From the NCBI GenBank assembly GCA_010093605.1, contig MU004187.1, positions 682,001-746,000 of the forward strand: 64,000 nt of DNA. The letters run 5' to 3'. Under the pieces are notes generated by a model, which made no database searches, was not told the origin of the DNA, and saw only the letters and a list, made by a program, of their open reading frames with translations. The translations under genes were made by a program, and so were the position numbers. This document shows, in pieces, positions 5,643-61,898 of this stretch; position 1 is the stretch's first letter; each line of letters opens with the position of its first letter. The stretch is from Lophium mytilinum (taxonomy: Eukaryota).

Positions 5643-6240
5643 GATAGGAGGGTTGAGCGCGGCTTGGGGGCGATTTAAAAGTGCTTTGTTGGTGCGAGAT
5701 ACCCCCTTTGGTTATGGCGTTCGGCGTCGAGCTGAGTAGGAAAAGCGAAGGATGCTCTAGGCGGCTTCGAGGGGATCCTACTGGATAGGAAATTTCGAGG
5801 CTGAGGCTATTTTGGACGGGATCTGATCTATAACACCACACCGTTGATTTGACGAAGTCTTGAGTGGTCCTGCACGGAGCACTCCAACGTACTCTCAGAA
5901 CCCCTTAATAGGATCTATCAATTTGGAGCTTCTCAATCAAGCATGCTTTCCTGTACATGTCCCAGCATCTTAGCACTGCCTGGGAACCTCCACTTCGCTC
6001 TCTAAAACCCGAATAAATAGTGGTGTTCCATGGAATGCAAGTCAGACTCACAGCATAGAAATATCGAGTCTGGCTCGATATAGCGCGTCAAGCAATAACA
6101 TACCAAAAGCGACTCCAAATCGCACGAACTAGCTCCCGTTCATACATCTCACCACACCGTAATTTCACCCCGTTGCGCTACCCCAATTCAAAGTGTCTGG
6201 CCTCCGACATCTTACGGTAGCCTGCTGCACAAAGGAGTCA

Positions 6241-53785: not shown

Positions 53786-56707
53786 CTACGCTTTCGCCTT
53801 CTCTTTGCCCTTGCCTTTCTTCTTCTCCTTTCCCTTCCCGTCTTGCTGCTCTGACACTTTCGGCTTCGGTGCCATTGCTTCGGGCCCCATGCCAACACCC
53901 GCTTTTCGAGCCCCTATGACTGCACTCAGACAACGACCGACTGCCTCCAGATCCCCTAGCAGCGTCACATGTCCGCGGTTACTGCTCACGACCCCACCTC
54001 TGACCACACTGTAACCATCCGGCACCATAGCTGCCCTCGCAAGGACCACCCCATCGCCACTAGCGAACGCCAGCTCGTCGTATGCATCCGCGCGCTTGAT
54101 CGTGTCCCGGCTTTCCACTTTGGCACCGTATACAGTCGGCGTGCTCTTACCGTAGATAACAGCAATGGGAGGATATCTATTAGTCTTCGCATACTCAGAT
54201 TCGAAATCGAGCTCTTGCTTGAACTTCTTGACCTCTGCGAGGACACGCGTTAGATACGCGATGGCCTTGTCTTTCGGAATAGTCGAGGTAGTTGACGGCG
54301 ACGATGACGCAGGGTTGTTGTAGTCATTCGAGCCCGAATTGTTCTTGTGGCCCATTTGAGGCGCAAACCCAGTGCGCTCTGCGCCGCCCTCTGCAGCATT
54401 CGCCGCGTGCTGGGATTTGCTTGCAGAAACTTCGCGGGCGTTTATCGTTGAGGAACTGCTCGGTGTGGTGCCGACGAATACGCCATTGGAGTTCATGACG
54501 CTGCCGCCGGCGCCGCTACTACCACTGTTACTGCCACGGGAGATAGAGCTCTTGCGGCTGATGATGGAGCTGGGAATAACGCTGGACATGGAGCTGAGAA
54601 GGCCGCTGATGCTTGAAGTGCTGGGTATTGAGTTTAGTGCTGGCAATGGGTATGCAATGCAGGGCGAAAGGCGGCAGTCGATCCAGGTGTTGATATCAAA
54701 AAAGTCTACGGGGTATTCCTCGCGGGTATTCCTATCGATGAAGCACCTGCCATCCAACGGAAGAAGAGCAAAACTCGTGCGAATAGTGAAGTTAACCTGG
54801 GCGGTAAGAACACGGGAGCTCAGTAGCACGTCGTCGCCGTTGCGCAAGGGACCGAGGATATTGACACATGTTTGCGGAACTCCCGCATAGACGACACCAG
54901 AGACTAGGTCGGGCTGTTTGTTGATTACATGCCTAGTGATTAGCCCTCCGAGACTGTGGGCAATGACAATTGCGCCTCGTTCTCCTGGTGGTGCGTCGGG
55001 TCTGTTGCATGGCAAATTTGACAAATAGGTAGCTAGTCTCCGGCTAAGAAGGTGCGGGCTCAATCTCCAGTCATAGCCGTAGTTGTGGACGCGAAGGGTT
55101 CCATTTTTGTAGTTTTCAGATGCCCTTAATCTCTTGAAGAGTCTTCGGGAAATATCAACTGGGCCAATGTTGGTGAGCATGCCGCCCTCGATGATACGCT
55201 CTTCCATCGACTCTTCGTCCTCCGGCTCCAGGCCCACTTCAAGATCTACCTTGCGCAAATTCAGGCCAACCTTGATGGGTGCCCATACTTGTTGTTTCGT
55301 GTCGGCTGAGCGTAATATCGACCCTCTGTAGCCACCGAGAATTACGACGTCGCCCGTGAGATCTTTCAAGGCGCCAGTGAAGTACGGATGCGAGGCGGCG
55401 TTGCTTGATGTCATACCCGCGTTCGTTGATGTCTGATTAGCTTTGGACAAGGATATCTTTCGAGGCACAGTGGCCGTGTCTTCGTTCCCGATGCGTTTGA
55501 CAGGCACCTTGGTGGGAATAGGATTGACTTGTCGCGCATAATCTAACCTAGAAGTACCAAAATTGAAGTTAGGCATTGTTGGCAAACTAGGGAGTTTGAA
55601 ATTTGCATCTTGCCAGCTATCTTTGATCGCCTTGATACGACTATTAACCTGCTCTTGAACGTGTTCAAAGCGGCTATCGTCGCCCAAGGAAGACGCTCGA
55701 GATAGTGACCGATGCATAAGGAGCGAGTTGTCGGATGCGGATCGTCTAAGTTTTGGGTGGTGAGTTGGCGTTTGAACTGCTCTAAGTCGATCCGGAGTGG
55801 GAAGAGGATGTGGACGGTCCGAGTGAATGTCTGCTAGCTCGCTGTGAACTACTGGCGGTGGCCTGTCACGTTGAGGTGGGCTGGTTGCGACTATAGAGTG
55901 GCGCTGCGAGGCAGCTTTTGGATCGTGGCGGGCTTGCGAGTGACTTGGGCCATCCAGCTGTACCAGTGAAGGAGAACCAGCACGAGATTGTCTTTTTGAT
56001 CTCTGCGCGTCTTCTACGGTGTGGTCACCTGCATGGCTACTGTCTGAAACCGAAGAGGTGGAGAAACCCGGTAAAGAGAAGTTCAGCAGGTTGGGGCTCT
56101 TGGGCATGGAGGGCAAATTGAAACTCGAAAGGTACTTCTTTAGCGTCTCCGAGGTCGAGCCCCCAGAGGACGCTCTCCGCCGGTGGCCGCTGAGGCTCTC
56201 GCGCAGAGTGTTCCTAGTTTCGTCAAGACGTTGGAACTTTCGAGGACCAGACTTCCAAGGTGACGGTAGCCTGGCAGGTGGTGACGCTGGCGATACCTCA
56301 ACTGCAGGAGGAGTCGTCGGTCGTTCGGGTGTTCGTTGGTCTGTCTCTCTTTTTTCTTCCAGTGCGGTATCCACCCTAAATTCCCTTTGTTCCTCATCTG
56401 GTGTTCCCTCGGGCGACTTCTCCCAGCTGCTATCGAACAGCCCCCCACCTTCGACATCTTCCAATGCGGCGGCCTTTTCAGCAGCCGGAGTCTTTGGAGA
56501 CGTGAGCCTTGTTTGCGCCTGTCCAATGCTAACCCCAATGACAGATTGCGCATCTTCAGGCTGGAAGCCCTGTGGATCCGAGGACTCGTCTTCAGAGGGC
56601 GTGAGATCCGGATCGATTATGGACGCAAATTGTATCTCGGCAAGGGCATTTGGACGGGCGCGACGGGGAGAGGGTGTGGAAGGTATTCCGGCCATGGAAT
56701 CCGCCAT
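53786..56707 (-). CDS. LCAT-like alpha/beta-hydrolase with long disordered N-terminus (yeast YJR098C-like)
   Basis: VVILGGYRGSILR, YGYDWRLSP, nucleophile AHSLGG, YAGVP, FASGDGVV, RGHVTLLGD; single 973-codon ORF. Confidence 0.85.
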   Translation of the reverse strand: MADSMAGIPSTPSPRRARPNALAEIQFASIIDPDLTPSEDESSDPQGFQPEDAQSVIGVSIGQAQTRLTSPKTPAAEKAAALEDVEGGGLFDSSWEKSPEGTPDEEQREFRVDTALEEKRETDQRTPERPTTPPAVEVSPASPPARLPSPWKSGPRKFQRLDETRNTLRESLSGHRRRASSGGSTSETLKKYLSSFNLPSMPKSPNLLNFSLPGFSTSSVSDSSHAGDHTVEDAQRSKRQSRAGSPSLVQLDGPSHSQARHDPKAASQRHSIVATSPPQRDRPPPVVHSELADIHSDRPHPLPTPDRLRAVQTPTHHPKLRRSASDNSLLMHRSLSRASSLGDDSRFEHVQEQVNSRIKAIKDSWQDANFKLPSLPTMPNFNFGTSRLDYARQVNPIPTKVPVKRIGNEDTATVPRKISLSKANQTSTNAGMTSSNAASHPYFTGALKDLTGDVVILGGYRGSILRSADTKQQVWAPIKVGLNLRKVDLEVGLEPEDEESMEERIIEGGMLTNIGPVDISRRLFKRLRASENYKNGTLRVHNYGYDWRLSPHLLSRRLATYLSNLPCNRPDAPPGERGAIVIAHSLGGLITRHVINKQPDLVSGVVYAGVPQTCVNILGPLRNGDDVLLSSRVLTAQVNFTIRTSFALLPLDGRCFIDRNTREEYPVDFFDINTWIDCRLSPCIAYPLPALNSIPSTSSISGLLSSMSSVIPSSIISRKSSISRGSNSGSSGAGGSVMNSNGVFVGTTPSSSSTINAREVSASKSQHAANAAEGGAERTGFAPQMGHKNNSGSNDYNNPASSSPSTTSTIPKDKAIAYLTRVLAEVKKFKQELDFESEYAKTNRYPPIAVIYGKSTPTVYGAKVESRDTIKRADAYDELAFASGDGVVLARAAMVPDGYSVVRGGVVSSNRGHVTLLGDLEAVGRCLSAVIGARKAGVGMGPEAMAPKPKVSEQQDGKGKEKKKGKGKEKAKA

Positions 56708-58508
56708 TGTGATAATTTCTAGAGGGTGGAGAGGACAGAGTATTGCGGCGCCTCAGGTTGTATTTTCAGGCTGTGGCAGTGTCAGACGACAGATCCGAGA
56801 GAGCCGTAAGCTGCGCTTCTCGCAGCCATGGCCATTCTGAAGATGGCGCTGAGTGTAGCTTCGGTGGCGGTCGAGTCTGCATCGTTGCGCCTGCCCACAG
56901 GATGCCCAGTGCGATTCTCTAGCAATGTCGTCAGATGGGAATGAACAGGGCATGATGAGACAACGGCCACTGACCAAGCACTGCAGGTGTGCGCCACACC
57001 CTCTCCCGCCCGGAGATCCCTTCGTCACTTGTCCCTGAGCGCGCTCTACACCCGTCAAGGGCATCACTTCGCAATTGTCACTGTCTGGATGAGACAGCTG
57101 CTCTGTTCCTGGGCGTATGTCTGCTCAAGCACCTACGCCATACGCCGGCGTCTTGGGGCTCTTGGTGCACGGCGCGTGCCATAGTGCATGCCATGGGTCA
57201 GCCCTACGGGTCCCCGCGCGAGTCTCGTGGTATGACTCTCCATTGAACCACGAGGACAACAATATCGACAATTCTAACCTTTGAATGAGAAACTGTGGCC
57301 CCAGAAGCAGTAAGAAAGAAGCTCTTGCCCCTTTTCCGCCGCGAACAGGATACTGAAGAAGGAGCGATGTTGCGTGAGATTGAATTCCGCAGACGGCATA
57401 TTCGCAGCTTATTAACACGAAGCTCCATTCAATTATTCCACAAACAGTATCGTTGTGCAAACACCGCCGATGCAGGTCCTCTCTAATGCCTGTTGACGTG
57501 CATCTTGTCCCGGCATTCTCTCCGTTATGATCTGACGAGGCTGAGAGAATCTAGGACAGGAGGAGCACTCAGCTTTTCTCCTATGCCCACTGCATTGCTA
57601 TGCCAACGCAGATTGAACTCAACTTTGCCATCTGATCATCCTAAAATATTGACTTCCGCTATGTCGATGATAAGAAGGAATTGTGTCCACACAGTAGGTT
57701 TTTTGTAAACCTGCGGGTGGTCTGCACATCTTCCCCCAAGGAAGTCAGAAATCATCTTTGCAGGCACCTTTCCACCTAATTGGACTCCTTATGGGATAAA
57801 GGTATCCCAATGCGATGCACTTGATATGATACCAGGTCACAGGTTCAGGTGAACGGGTATATTACTACTTATGCTCCACTCCTGCCCGCTGGGTACCCTT
57901 GTGAGAAGTAGCCCAGCCAGCATTTGGCGGATAGTCAAAGGCAGTCCAATTCCCACTGCATGAGGCTTTACTTCTTACCCGGAGTCGTAAAGGCCCATAT
58001 ATCAACCTCTTCTGATCACATCTAGTAAGCTTCCTCGTGACTGCGGGAAAAGTCGCGACATCTCCCGACCCCCTGCGTAGGAAGCGCCCGATGGCAGTCT
58101 CCACCATCACCGCCTTTCGGAATTTATCGTGAGACTCTCCCAACCGGCGACAACCGATGCATGCCCTCCCGAAATTGCCCTCAACACACCATGTGTGACA
58201 GCTCCTCTTCACCGCATCCAAGACCCAGAATTCTGGAGTCGCACCGCCTGTACACCCCGCATGGAGTAGCCACTGACAGACCGCATCGCCTGGCCTGACG
58301 GTGGTCTGAGGGATTGCTCCGCTTCTTGCAAGAAAATACCGCCTCAAGGTCGGCGGCAGCTCGGCTGACTGTGTATCCTTGCCGGATCCCGGGGCATGAG
58401 CATGTGTATAATATGCGGAGGCCCGGACGACAAGTACATGTCCTCATCGTAATATCATCGCCTTCGACCTCAGCTTCACATCCATCATCTACTATCATTG
58501 ATATCAAA

Positions 58509-59285
58509 ATGGCTTCTTCCGGCCTCTTTCTCCTTTCTCAGCCTCTCCCGCCTAACACATTGTCTCTTGGTCAACTGCTTCCGAATCCCCTTTCACCGTC
58601 ATCCGGTCCATTTTTCAGTGCCTCCACCTTAGGAGCACAGGACCTTAGAAAACCCCATATCCAGGCGCGGTACAAAGATTTGGTTGCTTTCGACGATGAA
58701 GGCCGCCTAGCTGCTAGTCTCTCGGGACGGAAGGTCGATCCCTCAAGAAAAGACCTCGTTCTCTTACTCGCGGATGAGATGGAATACCGCTCTCTTCAGC
58801 CCAACTCCGCCTTCGACAACATATGCCAGGACCCCGCTGCACTGAGCTGGATGCGTTCTATGGCTGCACAAAACCAGACCCTATACTTCGTTGTTGGCCT
58901 CCAAGAACTCAAGAATGCGACCTTCAAGAGCGCCGTGATTCAGGAAGGGCCCCTTGGTGTCTCAGTGACTGAAGGACCCACAGCTCCCAAGACAAGCCTC
59001 CCTCTTCACGTCCGCCGAGACTCATCCATGGATATCACCGATTCCTCTTCCACTGGCGTCTATGGGTTCGAAGTCCGGAAAGTCCAGTGTCGTCTCGGGC
59101 GGACCGATGAGCCTCATCTCCTAGAGGATCTCGATCTCTCCTGGAACTACCACAGGACTGGCGACGGAGATTTGCAGCTGTCGATTGGCATGAGCAAAGC
59201 GTTGCAAGCCGAGGAACTCCGGCTATTGGCTGCCGCAATGGAGGACGCGTCGGATGCTAGCTATAACTCTTCGGACTCGGAGTAG
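58509..59285 (+). CDS. Hypothetical 258-aa protein, candidate fungal gasdermin (RCD-1/HET-Q1-like)
   Basis: CAAAATGG start, intronless. Ordered motifs LSLGQLLPNP, FDNICQDP..W, LYFVVGL, GVYGFEVRKV. The ORF is solid; the family call is inference. Confidence 0.65.
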   Translation: MASSGLFLLSQPLPPNTLSLGQLLPNPLSPSSGPFFSASTLGAQDLRKPHIQARYKDLVAFDDEGRLAASLSGRKVDPSRKDLVLLLADEMEYRSLQPNSAFDNICQDPAALSWMRSMAAQNQTLYFVVGLQELKNATFKSAVIQEGPLGVSVTEGPTAPKTSLPLHVRRDSSMDITDSSSTGVYGFEVRKVQCRLGRTDEPHLLEDLDLSWNYHRTGDGDLQLSIGMSKALQAEELRLLAAAMEDASDASYNSSDSE

Positions 59286-59929
59286 GATTGGGCCATGGCA
59301 TGAAGGTGTTTTGGGTGGGAGCGGCTTTCGGCTTTCATTATGAATGGCGATGGGCGTTTGTGTCATAGCTTGATTCACTTTATCTTGTATATATATATCC
59401 ACATAGGCCTCCCTTGCAGAATGAAACAGTTGTACATTATCAATTTTTGACCTGGAGAAAGCTGTGACCACTAATATCCTAGCCGTGATATCGCATTGTG
59501 GATCGCAATACGCGCAACTCCAGGCCTGGTGCATTGTCCACCTCTTCCATTCGCACACTACTCGCTACTCTTCATGCCAAAACCAAGATTTATTGGAGGC
59601 GTCCCGCCGCACGCAAGCGAGGCTAGATATAAGCAGACTTCACCATTCATCAAAGGATGCGTTGCTCCTCAAATCAGGCACAGGAGACTGTTTAGCTCTC
59701 CCGACTTCTCAACACCCAGCGTCGACGAGATCCTGGAAAGGTTAGAACCCTTTGACTGTCATGATTACCCGTAGCCGCTTATAACGTTAGTTCCATTGAA
59801 GTGGGGAAGAAGATACAATGAAAAATGATAAAGTAAGGAGGTAAAGACTAAAGCGGTAGATGAGAACTCGGAAACATGCTGGTTTCTCTTTAGGAACGCG
59901 GGGAGAACCTTCGAGGTTACGCTAGCAAT

Positions 59930-60037
59930 AATAGGAGAAGTGTAAGTAATGGGAGAAGTGTAGGTAATGGGAGAATTGTAAGTAATGGGAGTATTGGGGG
60001 TATTGGGAGTATTGGGAGTATTAGGAGAGATGGGAGA
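59930..60037. repeat. Mixed 18-bp (ATGGGAGAAGTGTAAGTA) and 9-bp (GGAGTATTG) tandem repeats
   Basis: Read directly: three 18-mers, then about four 9-mers. The minus strand would read SPNTPNTPNTPNTPITYNSPITYTSPITYTSP. Confidence 0.75.
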
Positions 60038-60824
60038 TATACAAGTAAATCTACTAGAAGGGGCCAGAGAGGGCAGAGAAATTGACCGACGCGGGGTTAT
60101 GAAAGGCAGGGTAAGGCACAATCATACAAGAACATTTAACCGTTGTACATACATAGTATATTGCCATAATTCCGACTTGCTCTATAACTAATAAAAAGGC
60201 GATTGGGTATAAGATGGGGGTGTCTGTTACTCCAAGATTGCAAGAGAAGAGAAATAGATATGATTCACGTCTATATCGAAAGTTGATATGCAAAGTATAC
60301 AACAGAGCTGGCTGATAGTTACATGTGCTTCTCTTGACTTCGCGTTAGTATTTTATACGTAGAGATGCGAGTTTGGCGGGGTCTGTGGCCTGAGAGCGGG
60401 CCAAGCCCTATCCTTTGCATAAAATACGTTAGCATCCCTGGCATCATTGTCAAGGCTGGAGAGCGACTGAATATGATGCAGCATGGTGGAGGAACTCAGG
60501 TGAGAGCCTGTGTCACAAGCGCGGGCTGTACCACCTGCTGACGGCGCCAGGGGCGCCCTTTGCTTTGCGGCGCAGGCAACCACGTTCCGCATCGATGAAC
60601 TCCCGATCACCATCAAACCTACTTCACTTAACCCCCGGCACATATGGTGGAGGCACTCCATACATCCTCATAACTTCATTTCGTTGCAACAACGCGTGGC
60701 CCCCGAGAGTCTATGTCCTCATCTTTTGCTCAACCAAGTTCAGACTTGCGTTGATCAGAGTGGCCCAGATCTCGTAACCGACATTCATTTCCTATCGAAC
60801 GACTTGCTTCGGGTTCCAGAGATT

Positions 60825-61898
60825 ATGGAGCCGGACAGTCCAAGTGCAGACTGTACAGGTATGACAGAGATCATACCCGAGTTGGAGAGCCCAGTACCGA
60901 GACTTCCTCTACACAAGAGACCTCTCGTGGAGGATGTCACCCCTGAAGAGTTCTGCTACCTCTTGGAACAAGTGAGGAGAAGAAGAAGAATGAAGATCGA
61001 TGAAGGCTTTACAATGGCCGAGGATTGCACCTCGTGGCAAGTTGGACAACCCCTGGACAGCTCGAGCCGCGAAGAAAAGATATTCGAGAACCCTCATCAA
61101 TTGTATGTCGACGCCGAAGAAGAAACGAGACAACTCCAGAATGCTGGCGATGTAGTCGAAAAGAGCTATTCAATCTGGTCGAAATTATCACACGAGCTAT
61201 ATAAGCGCATCTCTTCCCTGTGCTTCACCAATAACGACTCCAACCCCCAACCGGATCTCAAACCTTCTCTTCTACTACGCTTGCCGACAGAGCTTCGCCT
61301 CGAAATATGGCGCTTCGTCTTCTCCCCACCGTACTCCAAGCCCCACCGTGCTCTCTCGCTCCTCCGGACCAACCACCAAATCCACGAGGAGGCCCACCCC
61401 ATCGCCTTCCACAAAATCCGCTTCTACTTCCGCAACTACGACAGCCTCAAAGCCCATTTGGCCAGCCTCTCTTCAAAACAACTTACCCAACTCAACCACC
61501 TCCGCCTCCCCGCTAGATCCCTCGAAGCCGCGCTCAAAGACCTCACCCTCATCCCCCTCCTGGCAGACCTCAGCCACACCGCCGTCACCATTACACTGCA
61601 ACTCCCCTCTGGCGCCTCCAACCGCTTCCGCTCTGTGCCTAGTACTATCGCGCTCTATGACTGGCGAACGCGGGCCGAAAAGGTCACTGGCCTAAGAAAA
61701 ATTACTGTTGACAACAACGGGTTTTACGATGACTGGAATCTCTTGCTGTTGTTTTTGAATATGCACGCTCTCGATCCGCGGACACCTATCCCTGAACTAA
61801 TGACGGCTGTGTATACGCAGTGGGCGTATACTTTGCGGCGGAGGGGGAAGAGTGAGGGTGGCGGATTTGTTATGGTGATGGATAGGTTGGATGGTTAG
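60825..61898 (+). CDS. Hypothetical protein with F-box-like motif
   Basis: LLRLPTELRLEIWRFVF followed by LSLLRTNHQIHEEAHPI..F, a common fungal F-box-like pattern; first ATG of the open frame is 60825. Confidence 0.72.
   Translation: MEPDSPSADCTGMTEIIPELESPVPRLPLHKRPLVEDVTPEEFCYLLEQVRRRRRMKIDEGFTMAEDCTSWQVGQPLDSSSREEKIFENPHQLYVDAEEETRQLQNAGDVVEKSYSIWSKLSHELYKRISSLCFTNNDSNPQPDLKPSLLLRLPTELRLEIWRFVFSPPYSKPHRALSLLRTNHQIHEEAHPIAFHKIRFYFRNYDSLKAHLASLSSKQLTQLNHLRLPARSLEAALKDLTLIPLLADLSHTAVTITLQLPSGASNRFRSVPSTIALYDWRTRAEKVTGLRKITVDNNGFYDDWNLLLLFLNMHALDPRTPIPELMTAVYTQWAYTLRRRGKSEGGGFVMVMDRLDG

Follow-up and report, generated by a model that had tools for sequence, protein, structure and literature searches.

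Gasdermins execute in fungi a pyroptosis-like cell death that is common to animals and bacteria, and the fungal proteins have mostly been understood through a protease gene that lies next to them. Here we describe a gene of Lophium mytilinum that appears to belong with these proteins. It lies in a 64-kb window (contig MU004187.1 of assembly GCA_010093605.1, positions 682,001 to 746,000; coordinates below are counted from the first letter of this window), where positions 58509..59285 of the + strand hold a complete, intronless coding sequence of 258 codons plus stop. Its product, P0001, is predicted to have the gasdermin fold on the combined evidence of translation, relatives, codon pattern, AlphaFold2 model and fold matches. 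An earlier reading of the DNA letters, called the original prediction below, had taken this gene for a gasdermin-like one without an adjacent protease.

The closest described systems differ in how they are switched on. HET-Q1 of Podospora anserina, a protein of 278 aa with conserved blocks at residues 148-155 and 210-217, is activated by a cut after F238, as described in PMC8851545. The same survey states that 373 of 1,884 fungal gasdermins (20%) have no protease within 10 kb, that for 76% of these 373 the genome holds a gasdermin-protease cluster elsewhere, that three of the seven homologues in Glonium stellatum are without a protease (Dataset S1) and that bacterial gasdermin genes adjoin their protease. 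RCD-1 acts as two antagonistic, highly divergent alleles, RCD-1-1 of 257 aa and RCD-1-2 of 244 aa, and no proteolytic step has been observed for it (PMC11760362). Fungal gasdermin-like proteins, their proteolytic control and their unlinked members are already in print (PMC8851545, PMC11760362, PMC13475620 and PMC12881547), and P0001 adds to this known class.

Predicted fold of P0001 and comparison with known gasdermins

An AlphaFold2 model of P0001 was built with a 53-sequence alignment of relatives and reached a mean predicted local distance difference test (pLDDT) score of 88.7 and a predicted template modelling score of 0.85, with low confidence at residues 161-180 only. When this model was compared with the PDB by Foldseek, RCD-1 or bacterial gasdermins took ranks 1-10, 12 and 13, and the best match was 8jyy (E 1.9e-5). 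Two independent structure searches with the P0001 model placed only gasdermins on top, with RCD-1 first, and the model of a second family member, built from a different alignment, likewise had only gasdermins on top; for both proteins a clear gap separates the gasdermin matches from the next fold. The structural match spans residues 1 to ~240 of 258 at an identity of just 6-15% overall, and the model contains the twisted beta-sheet core with gasdermin-N topology. The gasdermin fold that the original prediction had proposed was thus recovered in the AlphaFold model, in its core sheet and in its Foldseek ranking. Furthermore, the ESM Atlas holds an entry letter-for-letter identical to P0001, whose own model in that resource compares with Bact_GSDM or Gasdermin clusters at template modelling scores of 0.45-0.56, and a sequence-feature search of the Atlas led to a PF26164-bearing cluster with a score of 0.92 for P0001 and 0.95 for its relative P0095, matches that serve as leads only. 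On the strength of these models, P0001 is very probably a homologue within the gasdermin superfamily, nearest to the fungal RCD-1 type.

The nearest solved relatives are RCD-1-1 and RCD-1-2 of Neurospora crassa (PDB 8jyx and 8jyy, with the pore in 8jyz), which are alike in size but share only 12-15% identity with P0001 in structural alignment and are not linked to it by sequence search. RCD-1 has a divergent allele partner, whereas none was seen for P0001 in a paralogue search of the window and among contigs at least 80% alike, which makes a weak test. Unlike RCD-1, the P0001 family has a conserved acidic tail. HET-Q1 resembles P0001 in its small size, in two similarly spaced blocks (residues 126-137 and 184-198 in P0001) and in a short C-terminal peptide after the core, a likeness drawn without residue alignment. 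It differs in that no S8 or CHAT gene was present among the frames scanned around P0001, whose tail has ~25 aa compared with ~40 aa.

Bacterial gasdermins are palmitoylated on an N-terminal cysteine, and in the Runella protein bGSDM a short C-terminal peptide is the inhibitor. Compared with those of Bradyrhizobium, Vitiosangium and Runella (PDB 7n50, 7n51, 7n52), P0001 starts with MASSGLFLL and has no cysteine near its N-terminus. The 53 relatives match no PADLOC model except nucleosidase and DpdD models, and the P0001 family is possibly a clade missed by sequence models. The Trichoplax gasdermin is said, from work by Li et al. in 2024, to be activated via a disulfide-linked dimer. Its structures (PDB 8jyv, 8jyw), those of a pore-domain-only protein with cleavage-free activation, are a weaker match to P0001 than RCD-1.

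A conserved and intronless fungal gene

Translation of 58509..59285 gave 258 open codons with no internal stop, and the opposite strand is rich in stops. The protein contains, in order, LFLLSQPLPPNTLSLGQLLPNPLSP, a Ser/Ala/Gly stretch, ADEMEYRSLQP..FDNICQDPAALSWM, LYFVVGLQELKNA, a Ser/Thr/Gly stretch, GVYGFEVRKVQC and an acidic C-terminus, and every motif that had earlier been quoted for an intronless 258-aa open reading frame (ORF) is present in the translation in that order. An alternative in-frame ATG lies at 58413, 32 codons 5' of 58509. The start is probably 58509, because the sequences of P0002, P0003, P0005 and P0006, the four close relatives of full length, all open at the MA(S/P)S.. 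position.

A word-indexed search of 90%-identity clusters found 11 proteins, of which the closest two are 83% and 78% identical to P0001. Among them, names attach to one from Glonium stellatum, with locus tag AOQ84DRAFT_182453 and 52% identity, and one from Alternaria incomplexa, with 30% identity. The relatives align with P0001 from end to end with no gap calling for an intron. An exhaustive HMMER search of 1.84 billion representatives returned 97 at E<=1e-3, 64 at E<=1e-10 and 15 at E<=1e-30, and the family relatives with names belong to Dothideomycetes and to one lichen-forming ascomycete. Contigs of related organisms from public runs cover essentially just the coding part (~58462-59350), and of 37 listed differences within the ORF, besides which there are 74 further ones, a hand count placed 34 on the third codon position. 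Since relatives were found in the searches, a syntenic orthologue is present on a metagenome contig and the differences are biased to third positions, the ORF is more than a chance frame: it is a genuine gene, conserved among fungi.

One public run, X1, which is RNA by guess, contains a single contig of 2,823 bases that matches the window exactly from 57627 to 60449 at a mean word depth of 3427; the neighbouring contig from 60421 on has a depth of 877 and another contig a depth of 283. If X1 is indeed RNA, this suggests that the locus is transcribed highly, continuously and without splicing, for which contigs are a poor guide.

Core anatomy and candidate membrane hairpins

The model of P0001 opens with a strand at residues 7-13. 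Three strands (50-61, 67-70 and 83-96) come next, then two helices (98-106 and 109-120), a strand of great length (125-147), another strand (150-155), a loop of low confidence (156-180) and strand 181-198. Its C-terminal part consists of strands 211-216 and 222-231, helix 234-249 and an acidic end that is only weakly predicted. Conservation within the family is highest in an N-terminal proline-rich block at residues 9-30 (58533..58598, + strand, as are all features of the protein), L-P-x-P-x-P ... L-G-Q-L-L-x-x-P-L-x-P, which includes the end of strand 7-13; G21 is kept in 96% of the 53 aligned relatives, L9 and P10 in 91% and P27 in 89%.

Two regions are candidates for the hairpins that insert into the membrane in other gasdermins. 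The first (58656..58796) comprises strands 50-61, 67-70 and 83-96 with loop 71-82 and is suggested by the secondary structure of the model and by a period-2 hydrophobic moment of 0.8-1.5 (family-averaged) at residues 62-70 and 83-89; by analogy, the region of strands 50-96 could be the first membrane-inserting hairpin, a comparison made without residue-by-residue alignment to gasdermin pores. The second (residues 138-183, 58920..59057) would be formed by the long strand and the following loop, which has a conserved L-P-x-x-x-R-R-D-S, a pLDDT of ~53 at residues 161-180 and a marked period-2 moment. This moment exceeds 1.4 at most positions from 158 to 168, with a peak of 2.07 that is surpassed only at residue 225 (2.11) in a core strand. 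Computed from family-averaged hydrophobicity, it shows strong alternation over residues 155-172 and is a descriptive measure, neither calibrated on a control set nor mapped by residue onto a solved pore. Such a pattern in an unplaced loop would look like what is expected of a latent arm of a membrane-inserting hairpin.

Conserved blocks mark the strands around this second region. The block Y-F-V-x-G-x-Q-x-L-x-N-A (residues 126-137, 58884..58919), recognized by conservation, opens strand 125-147; Y126 is kept in 79%, V128 in 89% and N136 in 77% of the 53 relatives, and the 11 close relatives all share Y126, F127 and G130. The block V-x-G-x-E-x-R-K-V-x-C-R (residues 184-198, 59058..59102) lies within strand 181-198 of the model, a core strand, with G183, E188 and V192 invariant in close relatives and V192 kept in 79% of the 53. 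The last two core strands of the model, residues 211-216 and 222-231 (59139..59201), end in ..L-Q-L-S-I-G-M-S-K-A; close relatives nearly always keep Q223, S225 and G227, and L228 is present in 87% of the 53.

The original prediction had regarded the hairpin segments as short and the protein as a possible non-pore-forming offshoot, for which we found no support. The length of 258 aa is comparable with that of RCD-1-1 (257 aa) and RCD-1-2 (244 aa), the starts of the two conserved blocks are 58 residues apart, compared with 62 in HET-Q1, and the loop keeps its strong period-2 alternation. A self-association prediction for four copies of the core (residues 1-233), run with the alignment unused, scored 0.01 against a mark of 0.32 and gives no evidence either way.

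Two further features of the core are recorded here. The R-R-D-S sequence at 59013-59024 (residues 169-172) lies in the only low-confidence loop; R169 is found in 64%, D171 in 66% and S172 in 70% of the 53 relatives, and R169 is nearly invariant in the close clade. We take it to resemble the consensus of a basophilic kinase site or of a dibasic processing site. C106 (58824-58826) and C194 (59088-59090) are nearly invariant in the 11 close relatives and present in less than 60% of the wider family.

The C-terminal tail

Residues 234-258 (59208..59282) follow the core as an amphipathic helix (E-E-L-R-L-L..) and an acidic Ser/Asp end, and by the model, conservation and charge they are a candidate regulatory or inhibitory peptide. 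The helix at 234-249 has a pLDDT of ~87-91 and the last eight residues one of 66. Among the 53 relatives, E236 is kept in 70% and L237 in 62%, the part beyond query residue 233 has a median length of 25 aa, and it is net negative in 48. Fold alignments to RCD-1-2 end at model residue 234-235, and model residues 1 to 250-252 align with chain residues 9-268 of Runella bGSDM. A tail of ~65 aa had been proposed from the letters; this is too long, because the model places core strands 211-216 and 222-231 within that stretch. With these two strands in residues 199-233, the real tail comprises ~25 aa.

The very end of the protein varies within the family. In 30 of 107 family proteins an acidic run is followed exactly at the end by G-[LIMVS]-[GAS]-G-[FYW], and four more carry the motif at most 20 residues from the end. 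The clade of the window instead ends in S-Y-x-x-S-D-S-E; the end of P0001 itself lies at 59262-59282. Judging from models, the G-x-G-G-F-type terminus looks like a free linear motif, and it may serve as a handle for recognition in trans. In the AlphaFold2 model of P0015, pLDDT is ~56 over the last 24 residues, including the terminal G-L-S-G-F, and intramolecular docking of this terminus in P0015 is unsupported at such a value.

Gene neighbourhood and search for a protease

Divergently oriented upstream of the gene lies a 988-aa frame resembling LCAT-type lipases (53786..56752, - strand; Pfam LCAT E 0.0071, below the cut-off), which carries the lipase-type motif A-H-S-L-G-G. Downstream lies a 464-aa frame (60504..61898, + strand) that matched DUF7730 only, at a sub-threshold E of 0.0054. 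The original prediction had named a divergent LCAT-like hydrolase and an F-box-like gene as neighbours; the first is retained on its weak Pfam score, and the second could not be confirmed, as no F-box model matched the downstream frame. Genes for Prp18, SAP18 and a sugar transporter lie farther away.

The six frames around the gene and 25 further frames of the window matched no protease family, S8 and CHAT included. These 25 consist of 22 of the 37 frames of at least 170 aa in positions 1-50000, the 15 that overlapped a longer frame being set aside, and of three small frames flanking the gene. The scan sees 4.7 kb downstream, and exons under the length cut-offs may escape it. The earlier statement that no protease lies adjacent to the gene therefore holds for the scanned frames of the window. 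When judged by the distance used for HET-Q1-type pairs, no S8 or CHAT gene within 10 kb was found in the scanned frames, with a downstream view of 4.7 kb. A gene for an NLR (NOD-like receptor) linked to the gasdermin-like gene was likewise absent among the scanned frames, and none of 106 tblastn hits fell outside the ORF, so that the window has no family paralogue.

A simple tandem repeat occupies the intergenic positions 59980-60050, reading MGVLGVLGVLGVLG on the + strand and PNTPNTPNTPNT on the - strand, and it draws short, unrelated, loose-ended contigs from several runs.

A syntenic orthologue on a metagenome contig

A search of metagenome loci gave a single locus, contig L001, whose orthologue of P0001 is 54% identical and adjoins the same divergent LCAT-like gene. 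The LCAT-like frames of the window and of L001 (829-3753, - strand) are 63% identical over 976 aligned positions and have the same position and orientation. The pair of gasdermin-like and LCAT-like genes is therefore syntenic across considerable divergence, as seen in this one comparison.

In L001:5872-6110, coding breaks off after ..E-E-D-L-Q-L, the stretch of 234 bp that follows is flanked by the 5-bp direct repeat CAGCT, and the part encoding the tail resumes in frame at 6106-6219. This stretch looks like a small insertion with target-site duplication. An intron in the L001 orthologue was rejected, as no in-frame GT..AG pair fits. Taken literally, the L001 copy would encode a protein without the tail, truncated within the last core strand. 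Downstream of this orthologue, region L001:7000-15632 is AT-rich, with 26-33% GC, compared with 44-61% over the first 7 kb in bins of 1 kb. Frames of at least 120 aa are absent from it, where the window carries ordinary genes; it may be a repeat-degraded region. Variation nearer to the window was seen in run X4, from a related organism, which has paired contig variants over the ORF, all at least 90% alike to the window in a comparison that admits only contigs at least 80% alike.

Nucleosidase-gasdermin fusions in the family

Two diverged family members outside the window, P0070 (561 aa) and P0087 (686 aa), have an N-terminal PNP_UDP or MTA-SAH-nucleosidase-like domain before the gasdermin-like domain. 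They are 35% identical to each other and collinear over both domains, with the acidic tail kept. The only clear PADLOC or NCBIfam matches (E<=1e-5) among the 53 relatives are nucleosidase models in these two fusion proteins. Nucleosidases of this class also serve as effector domains in fungal NLRs and in bacterial defence systems. Neither the fusion nor the tail motif was found described in the literature searched, which includes the gasdermin passages of PMC9815663.

Proposed mechanism and alternative explanations

We favour an account in which P0001 is a "pore-domain-only" gasdermin-like latent pore former with a tail-release trigger, and for this account as a whole we put the probability at roughly 0.6. 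A latent pore former is the most likely reading because the fold is homologous to RCD-1, bacterial, Trichoplax and mammalian gasdermins of solved pore, and by this analogy P0001 is somewhat more apt than not to form membrane pores. At rest, it would be a soluble and inactive monomer. On a signal, it would oligomerize on acidic membranes, where the regions of residues ~55-92 and ~138-183 might refold into amphipathic beta-hairpins to form a pore by which the cell is killed or permeabilized. The trigger, modelled on HET-Q1/HET-Q2 and on bacterial gasdermins, would be an unlinked factor, encoded at another genomic site, that removes or displaces the C-terminal ~25 aa with their helix and acidic tail, and this is the weakest step. 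Release of the tail by an unlinked protease is proposed tentatively, at somewhat less than even odds; it is suggested by the conserved acidic tail, by the cut of HET-Q1 after F238 and by the 373 of 1,884 fungal gasdermins that are unlinked, 76% of them with a cluster elsewhere.

Several points weigh against this account. Packing of the tail on the core would follow from pLDDT values and alignment ranges alone. Tail cleavage is not the default trigger in this fold neighbourhood, as the nearest relative RCD-1 is cleavage-free. A protease gene may possibly lie 5-10 kb downstream, beyond the 4.7 kb visible. As shown by the 54% identity to the L001 copy beside the same neighbour (63%), the gene behaves like a vertically inherited orthologue, which is less typical of fast-evolving allorecognition genes. 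In sequence comparisons, P0001 matched 0 Pfam families at E<=10, and the 53 relatives matched no gasdermin model of Pfam at E<=1 (in a Pfam copy whose content of PF26164 is unconfirmed) and none of PADLOC and NCBIfam. PDB sequences gave 0 matches at E<=10 to P0001 or to the 53-sequence profile, and overall no match to PF04598 Gasdermin, PF26164 Bact_GSDM or solved gasdermin sequences was found in these searches. Profile A2 retrieved nine close relatives only from a 5.8-billion-protein set, none of them Pfam-annotated, and a bridging search from the distant member P0095 retrieved four proteins, none annotated, which gave no transitive link to a named gasdermin family.

The same pore former might act without cleavage, as RCD-1 and the Trichoplax gasdermin do, through contact with a divergent allele or paralogue or through a redox or other post-translational switch, in which case the tail would have a structural or docking role and would be no cleaved inhibitor. 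We consider this unlikely but well worth weighing: RCD-1 has the same size and no proteolytic step observed, no protease is nearby in the scanned frames, C106 and C194 hardly vary among the 11 close relatives, and the flexible loop has the conserved R-R-D-S. Yet a partner copy is missing from the window, where 0 of 106 tblastn hits lie outside the ORF, and the X4 variants, all at least 90% alike among contigs admitted at 80% or more, include no deeply divergent haplogroups. The tail, moreover, is conserved and acidic across the family, as expected of a regulatory peptide.

A broader reading that joins several of these observations is rather doubtful. P0001 would stand for a distinct ascomycete clade of gasdermins that is invisible to curated models and falls outside the rule of gasdermin next to protease. 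The C-terminal module of this clade, instead of being a simple plug, would offer a docking site to an unlinked sensor or protease (for example by recognition through a TPR or PDZ-type partner). That module would consist of the short helix, the acidic run and, in 30 of 107 relatives, the G-[LIMVS]-[GAS]-G-[FYW] end. The gene would on this reading be kept as a single-copy, syntenic orthologue for programmed cell death in development or stress and not for allorecognition, and if it is true, the nucleosidase fusions would be two-effector death proteins.

More improbable still is a gasdermin fold that makes no lytic pores and has a housekeeping or developmental, non-lethal role at membranes, as pejvakin has among animal gasdermins. 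Synteny and orthology are kept, with the neighbour diverging at a similar rate (54% for the gasdermin-like gene compared with 63%), the gene is unlinked to a protease or NLR in the scanned frames, and the X1 contig, with a depth of 3427 next to an adjoining 877, would point to high constitutive expression if it is RNA. That status is a guess, however, and the depth of contigs says little about expression, whereas the fold is complete, as long as the active RCD-1, and its loop keeps the latent amphipathic beta pattern. Regulated pyroptosis-like death itself serves fungal development, according to PMC13733946, and a developmental role therefore need not be a non-lytic one. Finally, it is very improbable that P0001 is an unrelated, fungus-specific beta-rich protein with a convergent or artefactual prediction, since the lack of any sequence or profile match to a gasdermin model or solved gasdermin and the 6-15% structural identity are countered by two members with different alignments whose leading matches are gasdermins alone, clearly separated from the next fold, by a match over residues 1 to ~240 of 258 and by the separate model and feature search of the ESM Atlas, which also point to Bact_GSDM clusters.

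Implications for fungal gasdermins

The general picture of fungal gasdermins is unchanged by P0001, which is a clean example of the unlinked class that makes up about a fifth of them. P0001 combines a structure closest to RCD-1, a conserved acidic tail and a family invisible to curated sequence models, and because of this combination it is a useful test case for trans-activation versus cleavage-free activation. Counts of fungal gasdermins that are based on sequence models may be too low.

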